From Elusimicrobiota bacterium (GTDB lineage Bacteria > Elusimicrobiota > Elusimicrobia > UBA1565 > UBA9628), in contig JAPLKL010000041.1 of assembly GCA_026388095.1 (NCBI GenBank), forward strand, positions 36,016 to 100,015: a DNA stretch of 64,000 nt, read 5' to 3'. Under the pieces are notes generated by a model that worked only from the letters and a program-made list of their open reading frames with translations, had not been told where the DNA came from and ran no database searches. Positions 1,461 to 21,442 of the stretch are shown in pieces; the first letter of the stretch is position 1, and the number at the start of each line of letters is the position of its first letter. The position numbers and the translations under genes are program-made.

Positions 1461-3167
1461 TCAGGCGGGCGGCGCGCCCGGGGGGACAGGAAAGGAGGCC
1501 GGGCCTGCGAGCGGCTGAGAGCCGGGCGGCAGAGGGATGGGCCTGGGCGGTTTGCCGTATTCCATGAAAATGCTTACGATCTCGTCATAATCGAGCTCGT
1601 CGCGCCGCACCAGTTCGGCCGCGAAGCGGTCCAGGATGCGCGATTCGGTCCTCAGGACTTGATCGACTTCGACCAGGCACTCATGGAGGATGCGCTGGGT
1701 CTCGATGTTGAGCTTCGCCTTGAGATGCTCGGAGAGCTGGTCTCCCCGCATGCTCTGGCCCGAGGGGATGACGGAGAAGTCCCCGATGAAGCCGTCGCCG
1801 CCCATACCCAGGCTCCAGACCATGTCGTGGGCGAGCGTCATGGCGTTGGAGAAGTCGGCGGAGACCCCGCTGGTGGTCACGCCGTAGCGGATCTTCTCGG
1901 CGGCATAGCCGCCCAAAGAGGTCTTGATATGGCCCAGAATCCGGTTGCGGTCGGAGAGATGGAGCTCCTCGCGCGGGATATGGTGCACCACGCCCAGACT
2001 GCCCGCCCGCTGGATGATCGAGGCCTTGAACACATCGTCCGTGGGATGCAGGAGGTAGAGCACCATCAGGTGGCCGGCCTCGTGGTAGGCCACCATCTCC
2101 CGCTCCCGCGGCGACATGGTCAGGCGGTGGGCCACGCCGAGCTCGATGCGCTCGAGGGCAGTGGAGATATCCTTGTAGTTGATGAGCTCCCGCCGGTCGC
2201 GCAGGGCCACCAAGGCGCCCTCCTTGAGGATGTTCTCGATCTCGGCCGGGGTCTTGAAGACCGCCTTGCGCGCCAGCCGCCCCAGATCCACGGCCGGGTC
2301 GAGATGGACCTTCTTGGCGTAATAGGCGAAGATCTCTTCACGCTCCTGCAGGTTCGGCCGCCCGATGGCGATGGTGCGGTCGAAGCGGCCGGGCCGCATC
2401 AGGGCGGGGTCGAGGACCTCCTCCCGCGCGTTCATGGCGCCGAGGACCACGATGTGGCTCTCGTCGTCGGTGAGGCCGTCCATCTCCACGAGGAGCTGGT
2501 TGAGGGTGCTGTTGGACTCGGAGGAGCCGCCGAAGGCGTCCAGGAACGTGCGCTGCTTGCCCACGACCTCGAGCTCGTCTATGAAGATGAGGCAGGCGCC
2601 GTAAGCCTGGGCGTACTGCCGGGCCTGCTTGAAGAGCTTGCGCACGCGCGAGGCCCCCACGCCCACGAAGACCTCCACGAACTCCGAGCCGGCGGTGGAG
2701 AGGAACGGCACGCCGGCCTCGGTGGCGATGGCCTTGGCCAGCATGGTCTTGCCGCAGCCCGGGGGCCCGACCATGAGCATGCCGTGCAGGATCTTGCCGC
2801 CCACGCGCTTCAAGGCCGCGCGGTCCTTGATGAGCTGGACCATCTCCCAGGCCTCGCGCTTGGCCTCGATGAGGCCGATGACGTCCGTAAAGCGCACCTT
2901 GACCTGGGAGGCGTCGACCTTGGACTTCTTGAGCTGGGCGAAGCCTCCGCCGTACTGCAAGAGATACAGGAAGCCCACGAAGACCAAGGTCTGCAGGATG
3001 CCCCAGGGCAAAGAGGCCACGTTGATGCCCACGATATAGCGCCGGACGCTCTCCTCCATGCCGGACATGTACCAGACCGGGATGATGATGGCCACGATGA
3101 AGCCGACCACGATGGCGACCACCAGCCAGTTGCGCTGCATGAAAAGGCGGATCTTGGCCCAGAGCAT
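1461..3167 (-). CDS. ftsH: ATP-dependent zinc metalloprotease FtsH (AAA+ domain plus M41 peptidase domain).
   Basis: There are two N-terminal TM helices, a Walker A motif (GPPGCGKT), a Walker B motif (IFIDELE), a second region of homology, and the HEAGH zinc-binding motif. The start is MLWAKIRLFMQ at 3167. Confidence 0.9.
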   Translation of the reverse strand: MLWAKIRLFMQRNWLVVAIVVGFIVAIIIPVWYMSGMEESVRRYIVGINVASLPWGILQTLVFVGFLYLLQYGGGFAQLKKSKVDASQVKVRFTDVIGLIEAKREAWEMVQLIKDRAALKRVGGKILHGMLMVGPPGCGKTMLAKAIATEAGVPFLSTAGSEFVEVFVGVGASRVRKLFKQARQYAQAYGACLIFIDELEVVGKQRTFLDAFGGSSESNSTLNQLLVEMDGLTDDESHIVVLGAMNAREEVLDPALMRPGRFDRTIAIGRPNLQEREEIFAYYAKKVHLDPAVDLGRLARKAVFKTPAEIENILKEGALVALRDRRELINYKDISTALERIELGVAHRLTMSPREREMVAYHEAGHLMVLYLLHPTDDVFKASIIQRAGSLGVVHHIPREELHLSDRNRILGHIKTSLGGYAAEKIRYGVTTSGVSADFSNAMTLAHDMVWSLGMGGDGFIGDFSVIPSGQSMRGDQLSEHLKAKLNIETQRILHECLVEVDQVLRTESRILDRFAAELVRRDELDYDEIVSIFMEYGKPPRPIPLPPGSQPLAGPASFPVPPGAPPA

Positions 3168-3221
3168 AGGAATTTTAGTTTAGCATTTAGCGGGCCTGAG
3201 GCGTGGCTGCGGCGATGGCCA

Positions 3222-3698
3222 TCAAGGGCCCAGACCCGGCAGGATGAAGGCGATGGGCCGGTCGCGGTTGGGCACGTACTTCGTCACCTCGAAAGTGAAG
3301 CCCGAGCTCTTGTAGAACGGCATGTTGATGGGATGGGTCTTGACCGTGAGGGTCACCACCTGCCAGACCTGGGTGCGGTTGATGTCGACCTGGGCCGCCT
3401 GCCCCAGCAGGTCGAGGAACGAACCGGCCTTGGTGCCGTAGCCCAGGTACTGGCTGACCTTGGTCTGGATGTCCCCCATGAGCTGGTTGTCCGAACTCAC
3501 GTAGGCCGCGTTGCGGTGCGACTCGAGCTGCCAGCGCCGGGCCGCGTAGAAGGACGCGATCTCGATCTTCTGCACGAGGATGAGCAGGGCGTAGATCTTG
3601 GCGAAGGCGAAGAGGAAGAACATGAACAGGGGGAAGAGCAGGACCGTCTCGGTCATGGCCTGCCCGGGCCGGCGCCTGCGCCAAGGGAATCTGATCAT
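3222..3698 (-). CDS. TadE-like minor pilin (pseudopilin) of the Tad/Flp system.
   Basis: The N-terminus MIRFPWRRRRPGQAMTETVLLFPLFMFFLFAF matches the TadE-like N-terminal domain (basic residues, GQ, hydrophobic helix). It overlaps the stop of the upstream gene by 4 nt (ATGA). Confidence 0.75.
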   Translation of the reverse strand: MIRFPWRRRRPGQAMTETVLLFPLFMFFLFAFAKIYALLILVQKIEIASFYAARRWQLESHRNAAYVSSDNQLMGDIQTKVSQYLGYGTKAGSFLDLLGQAAQVDINRTQVWQVVTLTVKTHPINMPFYKSSGFTFEVTKYVPNRDRPIAFILPGLGP

Positions 3699-4927
3699 GG
3701 GTATGTCCGGACCTGGAACTTGGGCGTCGGGTTGGGCCAGACCGAGGCCTTGGTGCCGGTGCCGTAGCCGTCTATGGCCACGGAGACATGGATCGCGGGG
3801 CCCCCGCCGGGGAAGTCGGTCTGGAAGTCGTGGTTGAAGTAGTTCTTGGAGACGATGAAGTTGTCGCCCGCCCCGCCCCAGAACTGGTTGACCGGGACGC
3901 CCCGGCTCCCATACTGGCTCGAGCTCAGCGCCGCGTTGAGCTTGCCGTCATGGGCGGAGCTGCCGTGGTGCACGCCCGTGATGCCGTCGCTGACCGTCAG
4001 GATCTGGAAAAGGCCGTGGCAGCCGTTGATGGGGCTGGCCATCTGGACCGGGCCGCCGTCAGGCGAATAGACCTGCCAGGGCTGGAACGTGGTGCCCGTC
4101 GGCTTGTTCCCGTAGAAATTGACGTACTGGTAGCAATGGTACTGGAGACTGCTGCCCAGACCCCAGCTGCCCATGCCCGCCTCGAAGAGGTTGGAGGCGG
4201 CGGCCGCCCCGTTGACGTCGGAGCCGGTGTTGAGCCAATAGGATTTCCGGAGGAAGTTGTGCGCCGACGCCAGGCGGTTGAGCACCGAATACTGGGCGTC
4301 CTCGACGGAGCCGAGCAGCTGGTAGATCTGGACGTAGAGCTTGTAGATCTGGTTGGCGTCGTCCCAGTTGAGCCAGTAGGCGTTGGCGTCGTCGTCTTTC
4401 TCCAGGCCCGTCAGGATCGTGATGCAGGGCGACTTGCCGGTGGGCGGACAGGACTCCCCGTCGATGTTCGACGGATCGTCGTTCTTGTCGCGGCCGGGCG
4501 GGCCCCCGTACCTGATGTTCCAGGAACCGTCGCTGTTGCTGAACTTGTCGTCATGCCTCGGCACGCAGTCCCCGTTGCGCTGGGGGAACACGCCCCGCCT
4601 GCAGAGGATCGTCCAAAGCCTCTTGTCCTCGGCGCCCTTGCTGTCGCAGCCGCCCTTCATCGAGCAGTCGAGGGTGGTGTCATAGAACCCCTCGTCGAAG
4701 ATGCGCATGGGGAAAGCGCCGTTGACGTAGGCGGTCCGGTTGAGGAAGTCGGAGTAGTTGGTCATCTCCACGAATACGGCCGCGTCGATGGCGAACTGAT
4801 GGCGGATCTTCTCGCGGGAGAGCTTCGCCGTCTCGTAGATGAGATAGACGAAAAGCATGAGGGTGGGGAACAGGAACAGGGCGGGGATGATGACCTGCCC
4901 CAAACGGCCTCTGCGGCGGGATAGCAT
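3695..4927 (-). CDS. Large TadE/TadG-like pseudopilin (410 aa).
   Basis: From the ATG at 4927 the N-terminus MLSRRRGRLGQVIIPALFLFPTLMLFVYLIYE has the TadE-like signature. It is followed by a Cys-containing periplasmic domain. The arginine-rich upstream extension in the track ORF is spurious. Confidence 0.7.
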   Translation of the reverse strand: MLSRRRGRLGQVIIPALFLFPTLMLFVYLIYETAKLSREKIRHQFAIDAAVFVEMTNYSDFLNRTAYVNGAFPMRIFDEGFYDTTLDCSMKGGCDSKGAEDKRLWTILCRRGVFPQRNGDCVPRHDDKFSNSDGSWNIRYGGPPGRDKNDDPSNIDGESCPPTGKSPCITILTGLEKDDDANAYWLNWDDANQIYKLYVQIYQLLGSVEDAQYSVLNRLASAHNFLRKSYWLNTGSDVNGAAAASNLFEAGMGSWGLGSSLQYHCYQYVNFYGNKPTGTTFQPWQVYSPDGGPVQMASPINGCHGLFQILTVSDGITGVHHGSSAHDGKLNAALSSSQYGSRGVPVNQFWGGAGDNFIVSKNYFNHDFQTDFPGGGPAIHVSVAIDGYGTGTKASVWPNPTPKFQVRTYP

Positions 4928-4997
4928 CCCTAGAAGGTTAGCCCGAGGCCCGTGAAAAATCAAGGCCGGGACGGTAAAAAAGCGGTATCGGCGGGAC

Positions 4998-5987
4998 CTA
5001 GACGACCAGGAACTTGGCGGTCTCTTCGGTGTTGAAGCTGACCTGGGACGCCGCGAAGTCGATGGAGGTCGCGATGTGCTGCTGGAGCATCCCGTCCCTG
5101 CACCGGTTGATGCGCAGCTGGAAGGTCGTGGAGTAGAGCTCCCCGCGCACGCTCTCCACCTCGGCCCAAAGGCCCCGGTCGCCCCAGGGCTTGAGGGTCT
5201 CCGCCATGCCGGCCCGGTAGGCGGCGTAGTCCTCATCGTTCATGCGCCCGGTGGTGGCCATGTTGAAGACCAGCAGGCCCACGTCCTCGTCCGGCGGGAT
5301 GTTCTTGGCGATGAAGCGGGGGGCGTGCTCCGCCGGGCAGGCCACCAGCTGGAGGAAGCTGGCGTCCCGGGAGACCAGGTCCAGGACCACGTCTGCGGCC
5401 TGGTCCATCTCCTCGATGGCGCGCATGTTGTCCGGCGGCACGGCCGCGGTCAGCCAGCGCCTGTGGCTGATGTCCGAGAGCAGGAGCGGCTCAGGGTCCA
5501 GCCCGATGCGAGCCGCCACCAGGTCCGAGGCGAAGTTCTTCTCCGGCCGGACCATGTCCGCACAGAGGTCCAGGCCGGCGCCTGCGTTGACCTCAACCAG
5601 GTAGTACGGCAGCTTGCGGAAGCGCTGGAAGAACAGCAGGGCCGGGACCTTCCAGAGCCCGGTCCGCGCCGCCACGTAGGAGCGGCGGTGCCCGAGGCGC
5701 AGGCGGTGGTAGAACGAGTCCGGCGCGGCTGCCAGGAAACGGTCCAAGGCCGGAGCCGGGTCCGCCTCGGGAGTGCCGCCGCAGGAGGGGAAGTAGCGCA
5801 CCAGCGGGCAGTCCTCGTCGCTCAAAGCCTCGTAGTGCACCGCGCTCAGGAAGAGCTGCCAATCCTCGGTCCAGGCCACGAAGTTGCGCTTCTCCCAGGC
5901 CTTGAGGACCTTGGCCAGCCAAGGCGGGTCCCGCTTGACCGCCTCGGCCAGGTGGCGCACCATGGCGCCGGTCACGGGCAGCTTCAT
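4998..5987 (-). CDS. Hypothetical cytoplasmic protein, possibly with a SAM-methyltransferase-like fold or DUF2332-like; this assignment is weak.
   Basis: The protein has ordinary amino-acid composition from MKLPVTGAMVRHLAEAVKRD onward and contains LVEVNAGAGLDL, which resembles a Rossmann-type motif. The N-terminal ~190 aa of the track ORF are Arg/Gly-rich junk. Alternative TTG starts exist upstream as far as ~6040. Confidence 0.5.
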   Translation of the reverse strand: MKLPVTGAMVRHLAEAVKRDPPWLAKVLKAWEKRNFVAWTEDWQLFLSAVHYEALSDEDCPLVRYFPSCGGTPEADPAPALDRFLAAAPDSFYHRLRLGHRRSYVAARTGLWKVPALLFFQRFRKLPYYLVEVNAGAGLDLCADMVRPEKNFASDLVAARIGLDPEPLLLSDISHRRWLTAAVPPDNMRAIEEMDQAADVVLDLVSRDASFLQLVACPAEHAPRFIAKNIPPDEDVGLLVFNMATTGRMNDEDYAAYRAGMAETLKPWGDRGLWAEVESVRGELYSTTFQLRINRCRDGMLQQHIATSIDFAASQVSFNTEETAKFLVV

Positions 5988-6118: not shown

Positions 6119-6790
6119 TCAAGTCTCTTGCGGCGAGATGAGCCCCATCTCGATGCCCTTGACCACGGCCTCCGTGCGGTTGGAGACCTCGAGCTTTTGG
6201 AACACGGCGTTCAAGTGGTTCTTGATGGTCTTGACCGAGCAGTCCATCTTGGCCGCGATCTCCTTGTTGGACATGCCCGAGCCCAGCAGCACCAGCACCC
6301 GGATCTCGGTCTTGGTCAGAGCCACCGGCGAGCCCTGCCCCTCGCCCGAGGCCATCTGGCGCAGCCCGGCGAGGAGCTTGCCCATGACCTGCTGGGGGAT
6401 CATCACGCCGTCGTTGGCGAAGGCCTTCAGGGCGTTGACCAGCTCGGAGGCGGGCAGCATCTTGGAGAGATAGCCGTTGGCGCCGGCCTGGATGGCCTCC
6501 ATCACGTGGGCCTCGTCCTCGTAGCTGGAGAGGATGAGGACGTTGGTGTCCGGGCATTCCTTGCGGATCACCCGCGTGGCCGCGATGCCGTCGATCTGGG
6601 GAAGCTTGATGTCCATGAGGATCACGTCGGGCTTGAGCTTCTTGGCCTGGCGGATGACGTCCTGGCCGTCAACGGCCTCGCCGACCACTTCGACGATCTT
6701 CTCGTTCTCCAGCAGGTCCTTGATCCCTTCGCGGAACAGCGTCTGGTCGTCGGCGATCAGCACTCTGACTCTTTTCTTCGGCGTGGGCAT
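6119..6790 (-). CDS. NarL/FixJ-family response regulator (REC domain plus LuxR-type HTH).
   Basis: From MPTPKKRVRVLIADDQ there is a receiver domain (DVILMDIKLP, conserved K) followed by the C-terminal LuxR helix-turn-helix (TKTEIRVLVLLGSGMSNKEIAAKMDCSVKTIKNHL). Confidence 0.85.
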   Translation of the reverse strand: MPTPKKRVRVLIADDQTLFREGIKDLLENEKIVEVVGEAVDGQDVIRQAKKLKPDVILMDIKLPQIDGIAATRVIRKECPDTNVLILSSYEDEAHVMEAIQAGANGYLSKMLPASELVNALKAFANDGVMIPQQVMGKLLAGLRQMASGEGQGSPVALTKTEIRVLVLLGSGMSNKEIAAKMDCSVKTIKNHLNAVFQKLEVSNRTEAVVKGIEMGLISPQET

Positions 6791-6831
6791 TTCTTTCCCC
6801 CTTGGTCGTGTGTGTGAGTATATCAAAAAAT

Positions 6832-7953
6832 TCAACCGCCGGATTTCGGTATGGGGATCGTGAAATAGAATGTGGACCCCTGGCCCAGGCCCGGGCTCTC
6901 GACCCAGATCCTGCCCTTATGGCTGCCGATGATCTCCTTGGCGATGGACAGGCCGAGCCCGAGACGGCCGCCGCCGGCCTGGCTCTTGGCCTGATTGAAG
7001 CTCTCGAAGATCGTGTCGAGGTTCTCCGGCGCGATGCCTTCGCCCGTGTCCCGGATGGCGAACTGCACGCAGTCGCCGGCCTGGCTCACCAGGACCGCCA
7101 CCTCACCGCCCTTCGTGGTATGCCGGATGGCGTTCTCCAGGAGGTTGTTGAGGACTTGCATGACCCGCCGCTTGTCGCCGCAGACCATAGGCAGTCCCGG
7201 CGAGATCTGCGCCTTCAGAGACAGGCCGCGCGCCGCGGCCCGCCCCTGGGGCCCGAGCAACCCCTCCTCCACCATGGCCCCGGGAGCGAAGAAGCTCATC
7301 TCCAGACGGAACTTGCCCTGCTCGATGCAGGCCCAATCCACCAGGTCTTCGATGAGCCGGGCGAGCTGGCCGATGCCGTTGGAGATATAGACCATGCGCT
7401 TCTTCTGGTCCGCGTCGGGAGTGATGGACTGGGTGAGCATCTCGAAGCTCACCTGCAGGGTCATGAGCGAATTGGAGAGGTCGTGGGAGGACATGGAGAG
7501 GAACTTCGACTTCATCGCATTGAGACGGGTCAGCTGGGCGTTGGTCTCCTTGAGGTCGGCCATGAGGCGGCGGTTCTCGACCTCCAGGCGCAGCTTCTCC
7601 ATGGCCTTGACGATGGAGTGCTTGAGCCGGTCGAAGTCCACGGGCTTGGCCATGAAGTCCGTGACCGATTCCTGGATGGCCTTGACCGCGGTGTCGAGGT
7701 TGGCGTGCGCGGTCAGCATCAGGATCTGGCTCTCGGTGTTCACGGTCCGGATGCGCTTGATGACGTCGATGCCGGTGGCGTCGCCGAGGTTGTAGTCCAT
7801 GAGTATGACGTCGAAGAAGCGCTTCTGCACCGCCGCCAGGGCCTCGGCCCCCGAGGCGGCCTGCGCCACCTCGTAGCCCTCGACCTCGAGGTTGTCGTTG
7901 ATGCTCTCGCGCATGTTCGCGTCGTCGTCCACGATCAGGATGGAACCTTTCAT
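6832..7953 (-). CDS. Hybrid response regulator and histidine kinase (N-terminal REC, then HisKA and HATPase_c).
   Basis: The N-terminus MKGSILIVDDD...DVILMDYNLGDATG is a receiver domain. A coiled-coil region and an H-box (FLSMSSHDLSNSL) follow, and then the N, G1 and G2 boxes (LLENAIRHT, RDTGEGI, GLGLSIAKEI). Confidence 0.85.
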   Translation of the reverse strand: MKGSILIVDDDANMRESINDNLEVEGYEVAQAASGAEALAAVQKRFFDVILMDYNLGDATGIDVIKRIRTVNTESQILMLTAHANLDTAVKAIQESVTDFMAKPVDFDRLKHSIVKAMEKLRLEVENRRLMADLKETNAQLTRLNAMKSKFLSMSSHDLSNSLMTLQVSFEMLTQSITPDADQKKRMVYISNGIGQLARLIEDLVDWACIEQGKFRLEMSFFAPGAMVEEGLLGPQGRAAARGLSLKAQISPGLPMVCGDKRRVMQVLNNLLENAIRHTTKGGEVAVLVSQAGDCVQFAIRDTGEGIAPENLDTIFESFNQAKSQAGGGRLGLGLSIAKEIIGSHKGRIWVESPGLGQGSTFYFTIPIPKSGG

Positions 7954-7965
7954 ATCTATGCCGCC

Positions 7966-9906
7966 TTAGGACATGTGTTGGGGGCCCGCCGCGCCTGCGG
8001 GAGCCCCGCTGGGCGGCGGCGTGCCCGGCTGCGCCACCGGGAGGGTGAGCTTGAAGACCGTGCCCTGGCCGACCACGGACTCGACCTCCACGCCCCCGTT
8101 GTGGCGGTCCAGGACCTTGCGCACGACGGCCAAGCCCAGGCCGGTGCCGCGCGCCTTGGTGGTGAAGAAGGGGGCGAAGATCTTGTCCAGCACGTCCGCC
8201 GGTATGCCGGGGCCCGTGTCGCCGATGAGGATCGCGACCGATTTGCCGTCTGCCGCCATGCGCGTGTGCAGGCTGACCGTGCCCTTCTGGGGCATGACCT
8301 CGATGCCGTTGTTCATCAAGTTGCGGATGGCCTGCTGCACCTCGGTGGTGTCGATGTCCACCAGGGGGTTGGCGGGGTCGAACTGCTTGTCCAAAGCGAT
8401 GTGCGGCGGGAAGGGGTAGACGGAGAGGAGCTCCTCGAGCCAGGCGTTGAGGAGGACCCGCTCGGGCTTGAGCTCGCGCGTGCGGGAGTAGGTCAGGATC
8501 TCGTTGATGATGCCGTTGGCCTGCTTGATCTCCGACTCGATGATCCGGATGTGTTTGTCGATCTTGGGGTCGGTCCCCGCCGGCGCGGTCCCGAGCTTGG
8601 TCTTGATGAAGTAGATGGAGTTGTTGATGACCGCCAGCGGGTTGCGGATCTCATGGCCGACGACGGAAGCCATCTGCCCTATCGCGGCCAGCCGCTCCTT
8701 CTTGATGAGCTCATCCTGGGCCGCCTTGAGCTCCCGGGTTCGCGCCTCGACGCGCTTCTCCAGGAACTTGGTGAACTTCTCCAGCTCCTGCTTGGCGTGG
8801 ATGAGTTCCCCCGTCTTCTCCTTCAAGGACTCGCTCATGGCCAGGAAGGTCTGGGCGAGGTCTCCGATCTCGTCGTTGGTGGTCGTCATCTCGGGCAGGT
8901 CCTCGAACTGCCCCCGGCCCAGCCGAGCCGCGGCCTCGCGCAGGAGGCGGATGGGCTGGGTGATGTGGCCGGCCACGGCCAAGGAGAGCAAGATCGTGAA
9001 GAGCACCACCCAGACCAAGACCCGGAAGATCTGGTTCTTCATCTCCGCCGCGGTCTGATAGGCGTATTCCACCGGCTGCTGCACGTAGACGACCCAGTCC
9101 AGGTCGCGCACGTCGGCGTAGGCCCCCAGCAGGCGCCGGCCGTCGCCCAGGGCCATCTCGCCGCCGCCCTTGGGGGCGGTCTGGGTGGTGATGATCTTGA
9201 GGACCTCGTCGCTCATGCGCGCGTCGGGCTTGAAGACCTCCTTGGGGCTCGAATGCGCGATGAGGAAGCCGTCGCGCTTGTCCACCACGGCCGCGGCGGA
9301 TTTCCCCGTGGCCGGGAACTCCATGCCCAGCATCGAGGAAAGGCCGTTGAGGCTGACCCGCGCCATCAGCACCCCCACGGCCTTGGCCGGCTGCGCCTTC
9401 TGATCGATGACGGCCACGGCGATGGTCGCCGTGGGATAGAGCCCCTGGAAGCGCTCGAGCTTGCCGATGTACTGCCCCCGGCGCATGGCCTCCACGAAGA
9501 ACTCCTCGCCCTCGAAGCTGCGCATCTCCGGCGCGGAGCCCAGGAACCGGCCCGTGCGCATCTGCTCCACGCCCAGGGTGCTGCTGACGGAGAGCTCCAG
9601 GACGGCGAGGTGCACCTGCATGATCCGGTTGAGGTACTGCTGCTGCTTGACGGGGTTCATGGAAGCGAACTCGTCGATGCCGGCGGTCTCGGCCAGGACG
9701 TTGCGGAAGGTGGTCACGTATTTGTAGACCGTGTCGGCGAAGCCCACGGCCAGCGACTCCTGCATGGCCAAGGTCTCCTTGCGCAGGGAGGCCTGGGAGA
9801 TGCCGACGAGGTGATAGCCCACCACCCCCATGGGCGCCAGGGAGATGAGCAGGAACCAGAAGAGGATCTTGTAGGCGAGCTTGCCGCGGCGCGCAGGAGG
9901 CGGCAT
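7966..9906 (-). CDS. Membrane sensor histidine kinase (periplasmic sensor domain, HAMP, HisKA, HATPase_c).
   Basis: TM1 is ILFWFLLISLAPMGVVGY. A periplasmic domain of about 250 aa follows, then TM2, a HAMP region, the H-box VVGHEIRNPLAV, and the ATPase motifs (LMNNGIEVM, GDTGPGI, GTGLGLAVV). Confidence 0.85.
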   Translation of the reverse strand: MPPPARRGKLAYKILFWFLLISLAPMGVVGYHLVGISQASLRKETLAMQESLAVGFADTVYKYVTTFRNVLAETAGIDEFASMNPVKQQQYLNRIMQVHLAVLELSVSSTLGVEQMRTGRFLGSAPEMRSFEGEEFFVEAMRRGQYIGKLERFQGLYPTATIAVAVIDQKAQPAKAVGVLMARVSLNGLSSMLGMEFPATGKSAAAVVDKRDGFLIAHSSPKEVFKPDARMSDEVLKIITTQTAPKGGGEMALGDGRRLLGAYADVRDLDWVVYVQQPVEYAYQTAAEMKNQIFRVLVWVVLFTILLSLAVAGHITQPIRLLREAAARLGRGQFEDLPEMTTTNDEIGDLAQTFLAMSESLKEKTGELIHAKQELEKFTKFLEKRVEARTRELKAAQDELIKKERLAAIGQMASVVGHEIRNPLAVINNSIYFIKTKLGTAPAGTDPKIDKHIRIIESEIKQANGIINEILTYSRTRELKPERVLLNAWLEELLSVYPFPPHIALDKQFDPANPLVDIDTTEVQQAIRNLMNNGIEVMPQKGTVSLHTRMAADGKSVAILIGDTGPGIPADVLDKIFAPFFTTKARGTGLGLAVVRKVLDRHNGGVEVESVVGQGTVFKLTLPVAQPGTPPPSGAPAGAAGPQHMS

Positions 9907-9993
9907 GTCAGATGTCCTCTCGGTTCGTCACGCTAAGGTCCCTCGGGATGTCCGGTCCCGGGCGGGTCCTGCCGCCGGCCACCCGCCCGCAGG

Positions 9994-10371
9994 TCAACCG
10001 CCAGGCGTCCGGCGCGACAGGAGCTGCTTGATGCGGATGGACAGCTCGGCCAAGTCGAAGGGCTTGGTGATGTACTCGTCGGCGCCCAGTTCGAAGCCCT
10101 GCTTCTTCTCCTCAGAGGAAAGGAAGCGTCCGGTCATCATGATGAGGATGGTCTGGCGCGAGCGCTTGCGCAGGGTCTGGCAGATCTGGAAGCCGCTGGA
10201 GTCCGGCAGCTGGATATCCATGATGACGACGTCAGGATCGACCTTCTTGGCCGCCTCGATGCCGGAGTGGGCCGCGCCCGCCTGGGTGCATTCGAATCCC
10301 TCCAGCTCCAGGACCTCGGCGAGGCTCTCGCGCAGGTGCGCGTCGTCGTCGATGATGAGCAGCTTGGCCAT
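9994..10371 (-). CDS. Single-domain CheY-like response regulator.
   Basis: The sequence MAKLLIIDDDAHLRE...DVVIMDIQLPDSSG...ITKPFDLAEL is a canonical receiver domain with no output domain. Confidence 0.85.
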   Translation of the reverse strand: MAKLLIIDDDAHLRESLAEVLELEGFECTQAGAAHSGIEAAKKVDPDVVIMDIQLPDSSGFQICQTLRKRSRQTILIMMTGRFLSSEEKKQGFELGADEYITKPFDLAELSIRIKQLLSRRTPGG

Positions 10372-10372
10372 G

Positions 10373-11173
10373 TTACCTCCGCAGTTCCGTGCCCGGCGGG
10401 ACCAGCTTGTAGCCGACGCAGGGGATGGTGGTGATGAAGCGCGCGGCCGATCCCAGCTTCTCGCGCAGCCGGCGGACGTGAACGTCCACCGTGCGCGGCG
10501 AACCGAAGTAGTTGTAGCCCCAGACGCGCTCGATCAGGTAAGGGCGCGAGAGCACCCGGTTCGACGAGCTCAAGAAGACGTAGAGCAGGTCGAGCTCCTT
10601 CGATGTCAGCGCCACGCGCTTGCCCGAGACGTGCAGGGTGTAGCTCGTCAGGTTGAGCTCGATGGGGCCCATCTTGATGATCTCTTCCGAGGCGTTGACC
10701 TGGGTGCGCCGCAGCACGGCCTTGATGCGAGCCACGCACTCCGCCGCGTCCCAGTTCTGGGACAGGCACTCGTCGGCCCCGGCCTGGAAGAACTCCAGGC
10801 GCAGGGAGGCGCCGCGGGTGCCCGGGGCCGCGATGGCCGGGGAAGGCTGGGACTTGGTGAAATAGCTGGCGTAGGCGGGCCGGACCACCGCAGCCGGCGT
10901 GGATGCGGGGGCGTCGGCGTGCTCCACCAGCGCGATGATGGGGAGCTGCTTCGTCGGCCCGCGGGAGCGCAGGGTCTTGACCATGGACACGCCGTCCTCG
11001 TCGACCAAGCGCTCCCCGATGAGGAGGAGCTCGCAGCTGCGGTTGGCCAGCAGGCCCAGGAGCTCCTTGGACTTCTGGGCCACGGTCACGGAGAGGCCGT
11101 TGGCCGCCATAGCCTCCAGGATGACCGCGGCCCGGTTGGGCTCGCGCGACGCGTAGACGACGTTCACCCGCAT
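10373..11173 (-). CDS. OmpR-family winged-helix regulator with a degenerate (pseudo-)receiver domain.
   Basis: The C-terminal trans_reg_C winged helix is clear (LTSKELDLLYVFLSSSNRVLSRPYLIERVWGYNYFGSPRTVDVHVRRLREKLG...ITTIPCVGYKL). The N-terminal REC-like region lacks the phospho-acceptor Asp (LLLIGERLVDEDG occupies the place of LLDxxMP) and carries a Pro/Ala-rich insertion. Confidence 0.75.
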   Translation of the reverse strand: MRVNVVYASREPNRAAVILEAMAANGLSVTVAQKSKELLGLLANRSCELLLIGERLVDEDGVSMVKTLRSRGPTKQLPIIALVEHADAPASTPAAVVRPAYASYFTKSQPSPAIAAPGTRGASLRLEFFQAGADECLSQNWDAAECVARIKAVLRRTQVNASEEIIKMGPIELNLTSYTLHVSGKRVALTSKELDLLYVFLSSSNRVLSRPYLIERVWGYNYFGSPRTVDVHVRRLREKLGSAARFITTIPCVGYKLVPPGTELRR

Positions 11174-11180
11174 GGTCTTC

Positions 11181-11615
11181 TTATTCCGCGGCGGGCTGGT
11201 CCTCGGCCGCCTCCAGTTCCAGGCGCACGGCGCTCATCCCGAAAGTATCCGAGAAGAGGTTGTAGAGCACGGACAAGACCAGGATGAGCGCGTCCATGAG
11301 GACCATGTAGAAGACCGCGAACATCAGCGTGGCCACCAGCTTGAGAGGCAGGGACATGCCGGCCGCGCTGAGGTTGGGCACGACCACGAAGCTGAGCAGC
11401 CCCCCGGCCAGGCCGAGGGTCCCCAGGACGGCGGAGAGGACCGGCCGGGCCGCGAAGAGGATCGCCAGGGCCGCCACGGCGCCCCCGACCACGGCCAAGA
11501 CGGTCGCCGCCTTGAGGTAGCCGATGAGGGCGAGGATGGCTCCGACCGCGACCCCGGTCGGGATCATCGGGTGGGTGTGCCAATACGGGTCGACGCGCTT
11601 CACTTGCTGGGTCAT
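11181..11615 (-). CDS. Small polytopic membrane protein (144 aa, about 4 TM) of unknown function.
   Basis: The ATG at 11615 is preceded by CAGGAGA 7 nt upstream. Four hydrophobic helices are present. The upstream portion of the track ORF is junk. Confidence 0.5.
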   Translation of the reverse strand: MTQQVKRVDPYWHTHPMIPTGVAVGAILALIGYLKAATVLAVVGGAVAALAILFAARPVLSAVLGTLGLAGGLLSFVVVPNLSAAGMSLPLKLVATLMFAVFYMVLMDALILVLSVLYNLFSDTFGMSAVRLELEAAEDQPAAE

Positions 11616-11709
11616 TTCGCTCTCCTGATAGTATCCTGCGTTAGGAAAGATTAACAATACTAATAAGAGAATACAAGCGGATTGCCGTTGGGGTGGCGAG
11701 CCAGCGCCT

Positions 11710-12822
11710 TCAACCGAAAGCCCGCATGCCGCCCGCCGGGCCGCCCTTGGGCTCGAAGAGGATGAGGGTCCGGCGCAGCTCGCCTTCCTCCTCCAGGTGC
11801 ACGGCCCGGACATGGCAGGATTCGCCGTGGAACATGGTGTCCGCCTCGACCAGCTGGTTGGGCCGGTCCAAGGCCACTCCCACCAGGCGCAGCACGTCCT
11901 GCTGCTGGCTGTCGATGACGTCGAGGAGGTGCATCTTGCCGTCCGCGCCGCCCGCCGCGGTCATGGGAAAATTCGTGAACAGGACCGAGTTGTCCTCGTC
12001 GACCACGATGGCCTTGTGGCTCTTGGCCACCACGGCGCTGAGGATGGACTGCCACCAGCGGGCCTCGGCCACCCCCCGCTGCTTCTCCTTGACCATGGTG
12101 TTGGCCACCTCGGCCTTCACCTTGGAGAGGAAGATGTTGATGACGTTGGCCAGTTCCCCGATCTCGTCGTGCCGCGGCGGGAATTTGAGCTCCAGGTTCT
12201 TGAACAGCGACAGCAGCGGGTTGAGGACGAAATGGTGGAGGAAGAAGTAGAGCGGGATGCCGAGCAGGAAGAGCACCCCCACCGCCCCGACCGCGTATTT
12301 GCTCATGGCCTTGTTGATGACCTTGACCACGCCCTCCCGGCTGATCTGCAGGTCGAGTATGCCCATGACCTCGCCGCGCAGCGCCAGGGGGATGGCGATG
12401 TCGTAGAGCGGCATCCCGGGCACGGCGCGCACCACCGGAGTCTTGGCCAGCGAGGCCTGCTCGATGGCGTCGGTGGGCAAGGACACCTCCTTGACGAACT
12501 GCTCGAAGGTGTAGGTGATCTTGCTGGGGTCGCGGAACCAGCGCACCTCGCCGAACTTATTGAGGTAGAGCAAAGAGGCCACCCGGTCGTCCTTGGAGAA
12601 GCGCATGACCACGTCGTGCTCGTCCATGGAGAGGGCGCTCTGGCTGCGGGCCAGGCCCGTGATCAAGGTGGGCGCGTAGAGGCGCACCATGTCGATGGCC
12701 TCCTGCTTGAGCTTCTCGTCGAAGGTCCACTTGAAGAGGTTGTAGTAGAAGATGCCGCCCAGGACCATGACGTAGATTCCGATCATGGTGAACCACATGA
12801 ACCACTTCGAGGAGAGTCTCAT
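11710..12822 (-). CDS. Membrane protein with a HAMP domain and an unknown C-terminal domain; a signal-transduction protein.
   Basis: The start is MRLSSKWFMWFTMIGIYVMVLGGIFYY (TM1). A periplasmic region follows, then TM2 (VGVLFLLGIPLYFFLHHF) and a HAMP-like amphipathic segment (PLLSLFKNLELKFPPRHDEIGELANVINIFL). No kinase or GGDEF output domain was recognised. Confidence 0.6.
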   Translation of the reverse strand: MRLSSKWFMWFTMIGIYVMVLGGIFYYNLFKWTFDEKLKQEAIDMVRLYAPTLITGLARSQSALSMDEHDVVMRFSKDDRVASLLYLNKFGEVRWFRDPSKITYTFEQFVKEVSLPTDAIEQASLAKTPVVRAVPGMPLYDIAIPLALRGEVMGILDLQISREGVVKVINKAMSKYAVGAVGVLFLLGIPLYFFLHHFVLNPLLSLFKNLELKFPPRHDEIGELANVINIFLSKVKAEVANTMVKEKQRGVAEARWWQSILSAVVAKSHKAIVVDEDNSVLFTNFPMTAAGGADGKMHLLDVIDSQQQDVLRLVGVALDRPNQLVEADTMFHGESCHVRAVHLEEEGELRRTLILFEPKGGPAGGMRAFG

Positions 12823-14171
12823 TGGGGGCTGCCGTAGAGGTTGTTGATGCGTTCCAGGCCAGCCTTGGCGTCGGGGTTGGCCGGGTCGAGCTGCAGGGCG
12901 TGCGTCCACTCGTTGCGCGCTTTCTCGAAGTCGCCCTTGTCGTAATAGATGATGCCGGAGAGGTAATATTGCTGAGACTGGCGCTTGTTCTCCTCGCTGG
13001 TCCCGAGCGCCGCGGCCGTCTGCGTGACATCGGTCTTGGCGGTGCCGGTGCTCGCCGAGATGTTGGTGGCCGCGGCCTTGGCGTCGGCTTCCGCCTTGGC
13101 CTTGGCCTCGGCCTCCACCTTGGCGACTTCCGCGGCCCGCTGCTTCTCCTCATCAGCTTTCAGCTTGGCGATGTCCGCGGCGCGCTTGCGGGCGGCGTCC
13201 TCGCGACGGACCTGCTCTTTGGCCCGGGCGATCAGTTGGTCGGCCGCCCTGGTGTCGTAGCCGTAGCCGACCGCCTTCTTCCATTCCCCCTGAGCCTCGT
13301 CGTATTTGCGCGACTCGTAGAGCTTGCGGCCCGCCACCAGGTGCTGGCTGGCCATCTCGGAGCGGATCTCGGCCTGCAGCTTCTGCGCCTTGGCGTTGCC
13401 CGGTCCCAGGGCCAGCACCTCGTCGAGCATCTTGATGGACTCGTCGATGAGGCCCTGGCTGTAAAGGTTGAGCGCGGTCTGGAGCTTCTCGTTGGCGTCG
13501 GCCTCGCGGGTCTCGGCCTCCACCTTGGCGATCGCCGGGACCAGGCGCGGGTAGCGCGGGTTGAGGACCAGGGCCGCGTACCACTGGTCCAGGCACTCGC
13601 GCAGACGGTGCTGCCGGTAGGCCTTCTGCCCGCGCCGGAAATGGTCGTCCGCCATCTCGCTGCGGGCCTTCTTGAGCCACCAGCGGGCCTTGAGGTTGCT
13701 GGGCGCGAGCTTGACCGCCTCCTCCCAGCGCCCGGTCGCCTCCACCAGGCGCCCCTGGCGGTAGAGCGCCATCCCCTCCTCGAAGCGGTCCTCGATGAGC
13801 TTTTGCTCCGAGGCGTACGGCTTGGGCGAGCCGTTGAGCTCTATGGTGGCGCGCTGCAGGATCGAGGCGTCCTCGTAGGCCGGGTCGATGGCCAGGATCT
13901 TGGAGGTGAGATCCCGCGCCCCGTTGAAGTCGCCCTTCCGATAGAGGTCGAAGGCGTTGTCGTAGACCCCGCCCAGGGTCTTGCGCATCATGCGCGCCTT
14001 CTCCAGCTGGATGGTGTAGATGTACTTCTTCTTGTCCTCCTCCGAGGTGATGGTGCCCAGATTGAGCTTGGCCATGTCCAGAAAGAGCCCGTCGGCGTCC
14101 TTGACCCGGGGGAGGTCCTGCCCCCAGGAAGCCGCCGCGAGCCCGAGCCACAACAGGAGTTGCCCGTGCAT
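12819..14171 (-). CDS. Secreted TPR-repeat protein, TadD-like.
   Basis: The ATG at 14171 overlaps the tadC stop (ATGA). The signal peptide is MHGQLLLWLGLAAASWGQ. Multiple TPR-like repeats follow (for example YRQGRLVEATGRWEEAVKLAPSN and YDKGDFEKARNEWTHALQLDPAN), and the C-terminus is Lys/Ala/Glu-rich coiled coil. The N-terminal ~300 aa of the track ORF are spurious. Confidence 0.75.
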   Translation of the reverse strand: MHGQLLLWLGLAAASWGQDLPRVKDADGLFLDMAKLNLGTITSEEDKKKYIYTIQLEKARMMRKTLGGVYDNAFDLYRKGDFNGARDLTSKILAIDPAYEDASILQRATIELNGSPKPYASEQKLIEDRFEEGMALYRQGRLVEATGRWEEAVKLAPSNLKARWWLKKARSEMADDHFRRGQKAYRQHRLRECLDQWYAALVLNPRYPRLVPAIAKVEAETREADANEKLQTALNLYSQGLIDESIKMLDEVLALGPGNAKAQKLQAEIRSEMASQHLVAGRKLYESRKYDEAQGEWKKAVGYGYDTRAADQLIARAKEQVRREDAARKRAADIAKLKADEEKQRAAEVAKVEAEAKAKAEADAKAAATNISASTGTAKTDVTQTAAALGTSEENKRQSQQYYLSGIIYYDKGDFEKARNEWTHALQLDPANPDAKAGLERINNLYGSPQ

Positions 14172-15082
14172 CAGAATCCCAGGCCTCCCGAGATGAGCGA
14201 CTTCATCATCGGCGCCAGCATCAGGATGAACACCGTGGGGAAGATGAAGATGAAGAGCGGGATGAGCATCTTGGTGGAGGCCTGGGCCGCGAGCTTCTCG
14301 GCCTTGTTGAGCCGGCGGAAGCGCATGTCCGTGGCGTAGTTGCGCAGGAGCTCCACCAGGCTGGTGCCCAGTTCGTCGGATTGGATGATGAGCCCCACGA
14401 AAGAGCGGATCTCCTGCACGCCCGTGCGCATGGCCAGGCGCTTGAGGGCGTCGCGGCGGGAGTAGCCCAGCGAGATCTCGTTGATCATCTTGCCCAGCTC
14501 GACTTCGAGCTCGGTCTTGGCCTTGGCGTTCTTGAGGATGCGGTCGATGGCGGTCATGTAGTCCAGGCCGGCCTCGATGGTGAGCGCGGTCAAGTCCACG
14601 AAGGTCGGGAAGTTGCGCATGATCTCGGTCTGCCGGGCCTTGATCTTTCCGTTGAACAGGGAGTCGGGGATGAAGAAGCCGACCAGGCCGAAGATCCCCA
14701 GGATCGGCGAGCCGGTCATGAAGTAGATGAAGCCGGTCAGTCCGGCGGCCAGCATCTCCTTGAGATGCAGCATATCCAGGGGAGAGGGCTTGTTGGGCCT
14801 GCCCATCATCATGTGCATCTCCTCGAGCTTGACGTCGAGGTGGAAGGTCCTGAGCAGGAAGAGGTCGATGCGGTCGAGCAGGCCGCCTTGCGGGTTGAGG
14901 CCCGAGAAGGCCGAGCTCATGCCCAGGTCCTTCTTGGCCAGCAGGGCCAGGTCGGACTTGTCCACATCGGGCGGCGGGGCCAGCAGCCGATGGATGGAGG
15001 TGTAGGCGGCCACCGACCCCAGCACCCCCACCACCAGGAGCAGGAAATGCACGAACTGGCCGCTCAGCAGGGTGTCGCTCAT
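14171..15082 (-). CDS. tadC: Flp pilus assembly protein TadC (T2SS F-domain inner-membrane platform protein).
   Basis: The protein has a T2SSF-type topology of about 300 aa, with one N-terminal TM and two C-terminal TMs (LIPLFIFIFPTVFILMLAPMM). It overlaps tadB by 4 nt. Confidence 0.85.
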   Translation of the reverse strand: MSDTLLSGQFVHFLLLVVGVLGSVAAYTSIHRLLAPPPDVDKSDLALLAKKDLGMSSAFSGLNPQGGLLDRIDLFLLRTFHLDVKLEEMHMMMGRPNKPSPLDMLHLKEMLAAGLTGFIYFMTGSPILGIFGLVGFFIPDSLFNGKIKARQTEIMRNFPTFVDLTALTIEAGLDYMTAIDRILKNAKAKTELEVELGKMINEISLGYSRRDALKRLAMRTGVQEIRSFVGLIIQSDELGTSLVELLRNYATDMRFRRLNKAEKLAAQASTKMLIPLFIFIFPTVFILMLAPMMKSLISGGLGF

Positions 15083-16590
15083 ACCTGGACATCCCCCAGC
15101 TTATTGACGATCTTCATGCCGATGGCGATCCACATCGTGCAGAACATGAGCACGCAGACCCCCAGCGGCGTGAAGTAGAAATCCTTCATCGGGCCCGGCT
15201 GGAAGGCGAACATGATGAAGAACATGACCCAGGGCATGACCCCCACCACGATGGCCTGGATGCGCTGCTGCGCGGTCATGGCCGCGGTCTTCTCGATGAG
15301 CTTGGTCTCCTCGCGGATGTTCTCCACGATGCGGTCGAAGATCTTGGTGAGGTTGCCCCCGACCTGGCGCTGGATGACCACGGCCTTGATCATGTAGGAG
15401 AGCAGCCGACTCTGCACGCGCTCCTCGACGCCCTCCAGCGCCTTCTCCAGGCTGGTGCCCAGTTGGTAGTTCTTGATGCAGAGCCCGAACTCCTCGGAGA
15501 TGGGCGGCTGCAGGTCCCGGTGCACCAATTCGAGGCATTGCACGAGGTCGATGCCGGATTTGAGGCCGTTGGACATCAGGATCATGGCGTCCATGAGCTG
15601 GGCCTCGCACTTCATGCCCCGCCGCCAGCGGATGTTGCGCAGCAGCCAGCCGGGAAGGATGAGCCCCCCGTATACGCCGAACCCGGTGAAGATCAGGAAG
15701 CCGAAAGGATCGAAGGTCAGCAGGCCGATGAGGACGCCCAGGGCCGCCGGCCCCCCCACCAGATAGTTGACCTTGATGGTGATGAACTGGCGTTCGTAGT
15801 CATGCGCCCACTCCTTGGCCTTGACCTTGTAATCCGCGACGTACTTGGCGATGCGCGGCTCGTTGAGCGAGCCCACGAACCAGAAGGCCGCGAAGAACAG
15901 GGCGATGCCGCCCAGCTTGAAGAGCGTGGCCAGCGCCAGCGCGGTCTTGCGGTCCCCCGGGGGCTCCGGAGGCGCGTAGCCCCGCGGCATGCGGTTGAGC
16001 ACGCGGAAGGCGTTGTCGGTCAGGCCCCCGACGGCCAGGACCGCTTCCCGGTAGCGGTCGGCGTCCGACGAAGTCAACGCGTCTATGACGCTGTCCATCT
16101 CCTTGAGGATGAGGTCGAAATCGGCCATCACCGCCCGGCCGCGGCCGCCCAGAGAGCTGCCCAGATGCGCGCGGTAGAGGCGGTCCAAGGACATCTGGAA
16201 CCGGATGCGGTTGTCGGCGTAGTCGCGGATGAGGGCCCCGGGCTGGAGCAGCTGGCCGCCGTCGGAGGGCAGGAAGGTCTTGCGGGTGAGCTCGAAGAAC
16301 TCGTAGAGCACCGAGACCGGGGCCTGCCAGAGCTGGGCCTCGTTGATGACCCCCTCCTCCGGGTCCTGCCAGACCGGCCTCTTGAGCATGGCATCGAGGG
16401 TCGAGTCGATCCAGGAGGGCACCGGCAGGCCGGGGTCGCGGTCCTTCTTGAAATAGTGATAGATGATCTGGCTCTTGGCCTCGGCCCCGTCGGTCTTGTC
16501 CACCAGGAACTTGACCTCCGCGGGCGAGAAGATCTGCGCGCCCGCGGGCGCGGCCATGAGCCACAGGATGATCCCGAGCCAGGCTCTCAT
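15079..16590 (-). CDS. tadB: TadB-like T2SSF platform protein fused to an N-terminal signal-peptide-bearing periplasmic domain of about 230 aa.
   Basis: The N-terminus [19 protein letters not shown] is a signal peptide and is followed by about 230 aa of unknown sequence. The C-terminal half has the TadB/T2SSF topology (LVGGPAALGVLIGLL..., IVVGVMPWVMFFIMFAF...). Confidence 0.8.
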   Translation of the reverse strand: MRAWLGIILWLMAAPAGAQIFSPAEVKFLVDKTDGAEAKSQIIYHYFKKDRDPGLPVPSWIDSTLDAMLKRPVWQDPEEGVINEAQLWQAPVSVLYEFFELTRKTFLPSDGGQLLQPGALIRDYADNRIRFQMSLDRLYRAHLGSSLGGRGRAVMADFDLILKEMDSVIDALTSSDADRYREAVLAVGGLTDNAFRVLNRMPRGYAPPEPPGDRKTALALATLFKLGGIALFFAAFWFVGSLNEPRIAKYVADYKVKAKEWAHDYERQFITIKVNYLVGGPAALGVLIGLLTFDPFGFLIFTGFGVYGGLILPGWLLRNIRWRRGMKCEAQLMDAMILMSNGLKSGIDLVQCLELVHRDLQPPISEEFGLCIKNYQLGTSLEKALEGVEERVQSRLLSYMIKAVVIQRQVGGNLTKIFDRIVENIREETKLIEKTAAMTAQQRIQAIVVGVMPWVMFFIMFAFQPGPMKDFYFTPLGVCVLMFCTMWIAIGMKIVNKLGDVQV

Positions 16591-18878: not shown

Positions 18879-18890
18879 GACGGCGCTCCC

Positions 18891-19643: not shown

Positions 19644-19688
19644 GATGTCGTACCGTTGCGGCTCGAAACGCCTCTACGTCAGGTCCGG

Positions 19689-20444: not shown

Positions 20445-20447
20445 AGT

Positions 20448-20915
20448 TCAGAAGGCCAGAGGCCTCTCGATGGGCATGCGCACCTCCGCCGAGATTGTGC
20501 ACCAGCCCCCGCCCGGCCCCTGCGGGCAGAGGATCGGCGACGACATCAGGATGCTGCTCAACGGGAAGACGAACTTGATCGGGTTGCTTCCCGTCACCAC
20601 GAGGTCTGCGTTGGTGACCTGCGCCTGAGTGTCCTGGAAGGAGTGGTAGTCCAAGGTGCAGGACACGGTCGCGGACTGGAGGATGCGTTTCATCAGAGGC
20701 ACCAAGCGGCCGCAGTCAGGCAACACCGTGCCGCTGGAGAGGCATTGGGTCATGGCCCCGATGCGGGCCACCTCGTAGGTGGCGTGGTTGAGCAGGATCA
20801 TCTGGAACGACATGTAGCCCATCTCCATGATCGTGAAGACGATGGTCAGGAAAATAGGCAGGACGAGGAGCATCTCCACGAGAACCTGCCCATGTTTCCA
20901 TCCCCTCTTCGACAC
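20448..20915 (-). CDS. TadE-like pseudopilin.
   Basis: The N-terminus MSKRGWKHGQVLVEMLLVLPIFLTIVFTIMEMG is a TadE-family N-terminal domain. Confidence 0.8.
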   Translation of the reverse strand: MSKRGWKHGQVLVEMLLVLPIFLTIVFTIMEMGYMSFQMILLNHATYEVARIGAMTQCLSSGTVLPDCGRLVPLMKRILQSATVSCTLDYHSFQDTQAQVTNADLVVTGSNPIKFVFPLSSILMSSPILCPQGPGGGWCTISAEVRMPIERPLAF

Positions 20916-21190: not shown

Positions 21191-21212
21191 ACGTTTCGCT
21201 CTCCTTGCACGA

Positions 21213-21380: not shown

Positions 21381-21442
21381 GTACGTCATTGAGTGTATCA
21401 GCCACGGTTTTCCTTGTCAATAACCTTTCCATTAAAAATACA

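Follow-up and report, generated by a model that had tools for sequence, protein, structure and literature searches.

The stretch of DNA analysed here (the window; 64,000 nucleotides, nt) belongs to contig JAPLKL010000041.1 of the assembly GCA_026388095.1 from an Elusimicrobiota bacterium. The phylum Elusimicrobiota has very few cultured members. At positions 6119–12822 of the window, a module of seven genes was found, and its central subject is an OmpR-type DNA-binding regulator, whose receiver-like domain lacks the phospho-acceptor aspartate. These genes had been outlined in an earlier reading of the sequence alone (hereafter, the original prediction), and the coordinates that it gave for all seven genes, which lie on the minus strand, were correct. 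The features of the module are as follows:

6119–6790, minus strand: NarL/LuxR-type response regulator with a receiver (REC) domain and a GerE helix-turn-helix (Pfam, NCBIfam)
6832–7953, minus strand: soluble kinase with REC (residues 5–114), HisKA (147–213) and HATPase_c (259–369) domains (Pfam)
7966–9906, minus strand: membrane histidine kinase with a transmembrane (TM) segment, dCache_1, a second TM segment, HAMP, HisKA and HATPase_c (Pfam, hydropathy)
9994–10371, minus strand: stand-alone receiver of the OmpR/PhoB subfamily, 125 amino acids (aa), without an output domain (Pfam REC, 8.8e-27)
10373–11173, minus strand: OmpR/PhoB-type DNA-binding regulator with a pseudo-receiver, 266 aa (Pfam, alignments)
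11181–11615, minus strand: protein of 144 aa with about four TM helices (4-TM protein), first gene of the operon (hydropathy, conserved position)
11676–11648, minus strand: sigma-70-type operon promoter with -35 TTGTAT and extended -10 TGTTAATCT (by-eye alignment of about 55 loci)
11710–12822, minus strand: putative sensor module of 370 aa that lacks a kinase, encoded at the end of the tad operon (AlphaFold2 (AF2) model, fold match, homologues)

The open reading frame (ORF) of the NarL-type gene occupies 6119–6835, and its true start is probably at 6790. Related loci were found with the 370-aa protein in 64 GTDB species (55–94% identity), and all named ones belonged to Elusimicrobiota.

The regulator encoded at 10373–11173 is composed of a receiver-like domain (approximately residues 1–160) and a winged helix (approximately residues 167–258). 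The winged helix was complete, as had been predicted: the Trans_reg_C profile (PF00486) was matched over its full length (1–77 of 77; 84.4 bits, 6e-24). The match of the other domain to REC (PF00072) was weak (32.7 bits versus a cut-off of 30.2) and covered profile positions 15–86, namely beta1–beta4, while alpha4-beta5-alpha5 was aligned by the full-length PhoB/OmpR models of NCBIfam. In total, 79 PDB chains of the OmpR/PhoB family were matched by the protein.

Three independent alignments were concordant in placing Gly53 at the phospho-acceptor position, namely a MAFFT alignment with PhoB, OmpR and CheY of Escherichia coli and three local receivers, the alignment with the Pfam REC profile, and phmmer alignments with the structures of RegX3 and PrrA. 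In the window copy, the DD pair is replaced by Ala/Ser, Thr by Val, Lys by Gln and the K-3 aromatic residue by Cys, and the D+4 Pro is gone; all five catalytic residues of the receiver are replaced. A set of 121 sequences (the 120 closest database homologues and the query) and orthologues from 53 species were then compared. The acceptor site was occupied by Gly in 121 of 121 database sequences and, among the species orthologues, by Gly in 51 and Ser in 2; Asp or Glu was found in none. The first DD position contained Ala or Gly across the homologues, and the second one contained Ser in 119 of the 121 sequences and Ser, Met or Ala in the 53 species. Val was found at the Thr site in 120 of the 121 sequences (Val, Leu or Ile in the species set). 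The Lys site contained Leu, Met or Gln in the database set and Leu, Gln, Ile or Met, mostly Leu, in the species set. Finally, the K-3 aromatic switch site was Cys in every sequence of both sets (121/121 and 53/53). Glu54 (D+1) was considered as a phosphomimetic residue and was ruled out, since this position is Gln in 50 of the 53 species and no conserved phosphomimetic is present there.

The Pro/Ala-rich insertion mentioned in the original prediction was found between beta4 and alpha4. It comprises 32 residues versus PhoB in the window copy (MAFFT) and 35–51 residues across the orthologues, with 26% Ala and 13% Pro.

A pseudo-receiver is defined as a domain that is recognised as REC but has lost the residues for phosphotransfer (PMC12632262, PMC4395418), and the domain of the regulator corresponds to this definition. 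With the acceptor Asp, Thr and Lys all replaced and the three alignments in agreement, the earlier pseudo-receiver call was upheld, and the mis-registered Asp that could have undone it was not seen in any of the 121 homologues or 53 species. Judging from these substitutions, the OmpR-type protein is a true pseudo-receiver, predicted to be incapable of canonical Asp phosphorylation chemistry. Because the catalytic residues are lost, a phosphorylation-independent or partner-dependent regulator is the right class of explanation, as had been suggested.

Column conservation among the 53 orthologues was 0.79 for beta1–beta4, 0.55 for the insertion, 0.92 for alpha4-beta5-alpha5 and 0.94 for the winged helix. 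This pattern argues that the regulator is selectively maintained and not decaying, the dimer face and the DNA-binding domain being its most conserved parts. The dimer-interface residues described for KdpE (I88, L91, D92, D96, D97, E107, A110, R111, R113, V114 and R118; PMC4773095) correspond to L126, F129, Q130, D134, E135, E145, A148, R149, K151, A152 and R156 of the regulator. Ten of the 11 positions match the KdpE/PhoB interface (conserved in type), with near identity to PhoB, and most of them are invariant in the family. Since this interface signature is kept, the regulator appears to retain the surface by which the canonical members of the family dimerise after phosphorylation.

Modeling of the regulator using AF2 with 50 homologues led to a mean predicted local distance difference test score (pLDDT) of 54.9, a model too poor to judge the fold or distances between cysteines. 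This is attributed to the shallow alignment, in which all sequences were at least 63% identical. Within this otherwise poor model, the insertion had a pLDDT of about 30–45, and it is therefore probably a disordered loop.

A HMMER scan of 1.84 billion representative proteins with the receiver-like domain revealed approximately ten family clusters, many of them fragments, while ordinary receivers started at an E-value of about 1e-12. No intermediate relative with Asp at the acceptor site was found among these representatives. The small number of clusters that precede ordinary receivers indicates that the family of the regulator is lineage-specific. A literature search did not reveal a paper on this family.

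The signalling genes are arranged in the order 4-TM protein, pseudo-receiver regulator, stand-alone receiver, dCache kinase, REC-first kinase and NarL-type regulator. The 4-TM protein, which gave zero matches in a Pfam scan, is encoded by a gene whose stop codon mostly lies within about 7 nt of the start codon of the pseudo-receiver gene (range mostly -4 to +7 nt), and the gene of the stand-alone receiver begins 1–25 nt past the pseudo-receiver gene in nearly all loci. In database entry P0132, a frameshift joins the 4-TM protein to the pseudo-receiver regulator. The operon promoter was kept in about 55 loci, including those with insertions of 4–8 kb before it; because it is kept even where such insertions split the 4-TM gene from the tad genes, the signalling genes constitute a separate operon. 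In loci L013, L023 and L046 (also L015 and L032), the 370-aa sensor gene is parted from the 4-TM gene by about 1 to 8 kb of inserted DNA, and the operon promoter is conserved there. A Rfam scan of the window revealed zero riboswitches, e.g., for cyclic di-GMP.

In the MAFFT alignment, DD, D, T/S and K are all present in the three neighbouring receivers. The active site of the stand-alone receiver is intact (DD 8–9, D52, T80, K103). This protein had been described as a CheY-like single-domain regulator; it is indeed a single intact receiver, but of the OmpR/PhoB subfamily and not of the CheY type, with 75 bits to the REC domain of PhoB versus 32 bits to E. coli CheY. Nearly all of the top matches in NCBIfam and the PDB belonged to the OmpR family (RpaB/RpaA, PhoB, MtrA, YycF, RegX3, CtrA and ArcA). 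Most dimer-interface residues are present in the stand-alone receiver; in those of the NarL-type regulator and the REC-first kinase, this is not the case. The stand-alone receiver (78–98% identity across species) and the NarL-type regulator (74–96% identity, column conservation 0.90) are the best-conserved proteins of the module. A recent duplication that would have given rise to the stand-alone receiver and the pseudo-receiver was considered and rejected, as their mutual score is 15.8 bits versus 24.8 bits between the pseudo-receiver and PhoB.

As for the kinases, the membrane one has TM segments at residues 11–36 and 293–311 and a weak dCache_1 match below the Pfam cut-off. HAMP, HisKA and HATPase_c were found in it by Pfam and its H-box (HEIRN) and N, G1 and G2 boxes are conserved, in line with its prediction as a canonical membrane kinase. 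In the second kinase, the predicted REC-HisKA-HATPase domain order was confirmed by Pfam; its H-box is HDLSN, the N, G1 and G2 boxes are conserved and the active site of its receiver is intact. Such a REC-first order is uncommon, not rare. The H-boxes of both kinases carry the E/D-x-x-N motif. The LuxR-type regulator was likewise recognised correctly, both REC and GerE being identified in it.

The 370-aa protein was modeled by AF2 (pLDDT 78.8) as a first TM helix, a periplasmic alpha/beta domain, a second TM helix, a HAMP-like helical segment and a C-terminal PAS-like domain. The full-length WalK model 9a5d_A was the top fold match (Foldseek E 2.6e-14), and the extracellular domain of WalK also matched the protein (TM-score normalised to the target, 0.53). 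The order of TM segment, extracellular PAS/Cache-like domain, TM segment, HAMP and cytoplasmic PAS is the same as in WalK, but the protein stops after the PAS-like domain and has no DHp or catalytic domain; in addition, the window copy lacks eight HAMP residues. On the basis of the model, the protein is predicted to be a sensor-kinase input module without the kinase, similar to the N-terminal two thirds of WalK. No Pfam match, including HAMP, was found for the window copy even at E <= 10, while HAMP was matched in 35 of 56 homologues (best 7.6e-6) and a comparison of the family profile with the HAMP domain of AF1503 was weak (E 0.1). The lack of a HAMP match in the window copy is probably explained by an in-frame loss of 24 nt near position 12205, which removes eight residues (RDAIEGIS) of HAMP helix 1. 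This segment was present in all 48 other readable loci, including the 93–94% identical L004 and L005, so that the deletion is either a strain-specific lesion or an assembly error. The original prediction of a HAMP-only membrane protein was thus only partly right: HAMP is recognised in part of the homologues, and periplasmic and PAS-like domains are also present. The ATG of the sensor gene overlaps the stop codon of the preceding TPR gene (12819–12822); consequently, the sensor belongs to the upstream tad operon and not to the regulatory operon.

Upstream of the module, a Tad/Flp (type IVc) pilus locus was found:

12819–20915, minus strand: Tad assembly genes, namely TadE-like, RcpC/CpaB, secretin, fused TadZ-TadA, TadB, TadC and TPR (Pfam, synteny)
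20985–21380, minus strand: two small genes of Flp-type pilins, 55 and 68 aa, with G-x-x-x-V-E-Y motifs (sequence)

The locus contains Flp pilin, TadE-type, RcpC/CpaB, secretin, TadZ, TadA, TadB and TadC components. The pilins carry the G-x4-EY motif; their matches to Class_IIIsignal and Flp1_like were weak and below the Pfam cut-offs, and Flp1_like was called in L002. No prepilin peptidase (TadV/CpaA) turned up among the scanned ORFs, no search having been aimed at it. The gene order from flp to the NarL-type gene was kept in the 64 GTDB species representatives wherever the contig was long enough, and also in L001 and L002. In the more distant species, the tad genes and the six signalling genes are all present, and the end with DUF2332 and FtsH is missing. 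Since the module is embedded in a conserved Tad/Flp locus, its likely output is the pilus; this setting had not been recognised in the original prediction. Tad systems have been noted in Elusimicrobiota and not studied (PMC6668835).

Some other features of the cluster were observed. TadZ (CbiA/ParA-like) and TadA (T2SSE ATPase) are fused into one protein of 763 aa (16587–18878, minus strand); the fusion is also present in L002 (743 aa) and is split in L001, probably by a frameshift. In L001/L064 (CP096137.1, a complete 3.8-Mb Elusimicrobiota genome), TadZ-TadA, the membrane kinase and the REC-first kinase were called as fragments, for which indel errors in the long-read assembly are the probable cause. 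The NarL-type gene is followed downstream (1461–5930, minus strand) by genes for a DUF2332 protein, a 409-aa single-TM protein, a weakly TadE-like protein (3222–3698) and an FtsH-like AAA+/M41 protease; two membrane proteins encoded there are TadE/TadG-like. These genes are syntenic in closer species and absent from the distant group (L043–L052, L059 and L063). Directly upstream of flp (21443–25914, minus strand), genes encode a 368-aa protein and a 1166-aa protein with FlgD Ig-like domains. The former shows a faint likeness to outer-membrane barrels (PorV, FadL, UPF0164), and its gene adjoins flp in related loci. The two proteins may be pilus-associated surface proteins.

A promoter and a candidate operator were found in front of the flp genes:

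21420–21392, minus strand: flp promoter TTGACA-17-TACACT with TG (promoter scan, 10/12 match)
21448–21430, minus strand: two TTTTAATG direct repeats, 11 bp apart, immediately upstream of the flp -35 (found once versus 0.01 expected)

Of all promoter matches in the locus, that of flp is the best; it is conserved in 28 loci, and the tandem TWAAY-N6-TWAAY is present in 18 of these. A search of the whole window with this repeat pattern, allowing three mismatches, returned nothing apart from the flp site and a single poor match within a coding sequence. At 25915–25965, the second promoter region named in the original prediction, a sigma-70-like promoter is visible, and no repeat related to the flp one was found there. 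The TTTTAATG repeats could be a tandem site of the OmpR type, which their spacing would suit, or an UP element, given their position (about -40 to -65) and A+T-rich composition.

The explanation that accounts best for these observations, and that is considered rather probable, is that a regulatory operon (6119–11676) lies in the Tad cluster and that its maintained pseudo-receiver works as a phosphorylation-free DNA-binding dimer on promoters of the pilus locus. The operon would be a self-contained unit within the Tad/Flp cluster of a high-GC Elusimicrobiota lineage. The pseudo-receiver would most likely dimerise and bind DNA in the unphosphorylated state, like ChxR, HP1043 and GlnR, and would help to control the pilus-locus promoters, while the two kinases would phosphorylate the three true receivers (NarL-type, stand-alone and kinase-borne). 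A signal might reach the pseudo-receiver by one or both of two routes. The first would be the amount of protein made from the operon promoter; the second would be a phosphorylation-dependent pairing with the neighbouring stand-alone OmpR-type receiver. Both routes were discussed for the CmrRST system in a 2025 review (PMC12632262). The putative heterodimer route would fit the complementary nature of the two proteins (a live receiver without an output and a dead receiver with one) and their shared interface signature.

Several points weigh against this explanation. The operon has its own promoter, in a few species insertions lie between it and the tad genes, and the functional link to the pilus comes only from the conserved neighbourhood. 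As the AF2 model of the regulator is poor (pLDDT of about 55), its fold and interface are deduced from sequence, and the insertion of 35–51 residues just before alpha4 could alter or mask the dimer face. A shared operator was sought in the window, and no regulon could be derived, the sole repeated motif being that at 21430–21448. This motif lies at the position of an UP element, its first copy shares bases with the stop codon of the outer-membrane-like gene that lies upstream, and the tandem repeat is absent from more distant loci. Moreover, the host organisms are uncultured.

It is also possible, if clearly less probable, that the two adjacent OmpR-type proteins form a split response regulator, in which the stand-alone receiver is the phosphorylatable half and the pseudo-receiver protein is the output half, so that phosphorylation drives an alpha4-beta5-alpha5 heterodimer that switches DNA binding. 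By sequence, the stand-alone receiver is of the OmpR/PhoB type, and its interface residues have no obvious use in a protein without an output; the two genes are adjacent in every locus that has both, and the dimer interface is the most conserved part of the receiver-like domain of the pseudo-receiver. There are also precedents, since CmrR-CmrT heterodimers have been detected and BldM-WhiI heterodimers are known. However, stand-alone receivers often serve to modulate kinases or as phosphate sinks, among the known OmpR-type pseudo-receivers constitutive homodimers are commoner, and the low mutual score of the two proteins (15.8 bits) shows that they are not recent duplicates. If this alternative were true, one phosphorylation event would be read out by a heterodimer on pilus promoters, and this would give a direct and testable explanation of the way in which signals get to a bacterial pseudo-receiver encoded in a two-component operon.

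The branched phosphorelay of the original prediction, with the pseudo-receiver as a partner-switch, appears unlikely. The operon encodes two kinases and, besides the pseudo-receiver, three true receivers, which is consistent with it, and the membrane kinase could control the REC-first kinase. Nevertheless, the HPt family gave zero matches in the seven module proteins and the scanned flanking genes (Pfam/NCBIfam), which leaves the module without a carrier for a His-Asp-His-Asp relay, so a phosphorelay in the strict sense is unsupported. A partner-switch of the anti-sigma type is likewise unsupported, as no STAS, anti-sigma or PP2C protein was found among the scanned proteins. As far as the domain content indicates, a two-component network with several kinases and receivers fits the evidence, and a His-Asp-His-Asp relay does not.

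Even less probable is direct sensing of redox state or of a small ligand by the receiver-like domain via its cysteines, as in RitR or JadR1. Each of the 53 species has Cys47, Cys136 (in beta5, at the K-3 switch site), Cys146 (in alpha5) and Cys252, for which a role in metal binding is also possible, and direct mechanisms of this sort are used by known pseudo-receivers (PMC4395418, PMC12632262). On the other hand, this invariance may reflect core packing only, and the AF2 model is too poor to judge the proximity of the cysteines. Finally, a decaying relic or an alignment or sequencing artefact, to which the weak Pfam REC score (32.7 bits) and the low-complexity look of the insertion might point, was ruled out, as the substitutions recur throughout the 121 homologues and the 53 species, the segments on either side of the insertion are strongly conserved and three alignment methods agree.

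Pseudo-receivers account for approximately 6% of bacterial receiver domains, and their switching has been called "a mystery" (PMC12632262). The locus described here is a compact test case for how a pseudo-receiver is wired into two-component signalling. With a dead receiver that keeps a dimer face and an intact receiver of the same subfamily encoded within 25 nt, the heterodimer hypothesis is easily testable in vitro with synthetic genes. The regulation of Tad pili in Elusimicrobiota also becomes accessible through this locus for the first time. If the regulator is merely another constitutive dimer, it is a routine addition to a known class.

Among the known systems, CmrRST of Clostridioides difficile has a similar organisation. 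It includes the pseudo-receiver protein CmrT, its phosphorylatable OmpR-family partner CmrR and the kinase CmrS in one operon, and surface behaviour and motility are under its control; both homodimers and heterodimers have been described, and how CmrT works is still an open question (PMC12548384; PMC12632262). Thus, a pseudo-receiver regulator, a phosphorylatable OmpR-type partner and a kinase are combined in one operon in both cases, which is a likeness of organisation and not orthology. In contrast to CmrR, the partner receiver of the Elusimicrobiota locus has no DNA-binding domain; the locus also contains two kinases (one of them REC-first) and a NarL-type regulator. Its pseudo-receiver regulator has lost all five catalytic residues, carries an insertion of 35–51 residues and shows no detectable orthology; the phyla also differ.

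Atypical OmpR-family regulators that are constitutively dimeric include ChxR of Chlamydia, HP1043/HsrA of Helicobacter and GlnR of actinomycetes (PMC3960148, PMC8345958, PMC12632262). They share the OmpR/PhoB architecture and a degenerate receiver with the regulator studied here, and in them dimerisation and DNA binding are independent of phosphorylation. PDB entries 8hig and 8hih ("OmpR family regulator") were among its best sequence matches, via alpha4-alpha5 and the winged helix. However, the former proteins are orphans or global regulators, whereas the Elusimicrobiota one is encoded in a two-component operon and a pilus locus and has the beta4-alpha4 insertion and Cys at K-3. In Streptomyces, the atypical regulator WhiI depends for its function on heterodimer formation with another regulator, BldM, in the way proposed for the OmpR-type pair, but both of these proteins belong to the NarL family and have DNA-binding domains, and their genes are not adjacent.

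Two-component systems are also known beside Tad loci. PprB of Pseudomonas aeruginosa is of the LuxR/NarL type. The PprAB system flanks the Tad locus of this species (PMC3510237), and in Pectobacterium the OmpR-type two-component system ECA0785/0786 adjoins flp/tad and activates it (PMC3767616). Unlike these pairs of one kinase and one regulator with canonical receivers, the Elusimicrobiota locus encodes six signalling proteins including a pseudo-receiver. OmpR-family pseudo-receivers, two-component systems beside Tad loci and, in CmrRST, a pseudo-receiver in a two-component operon are therefore already known. Judged by sequence comparison, what is new here is the combination of these features in an undescribed lineage-specific family, to which the total loss of the catalytic residues, the long beta4-alpha4 insertion, the Cys at the switch position, the output-less partner receiver and the two kinases are added.

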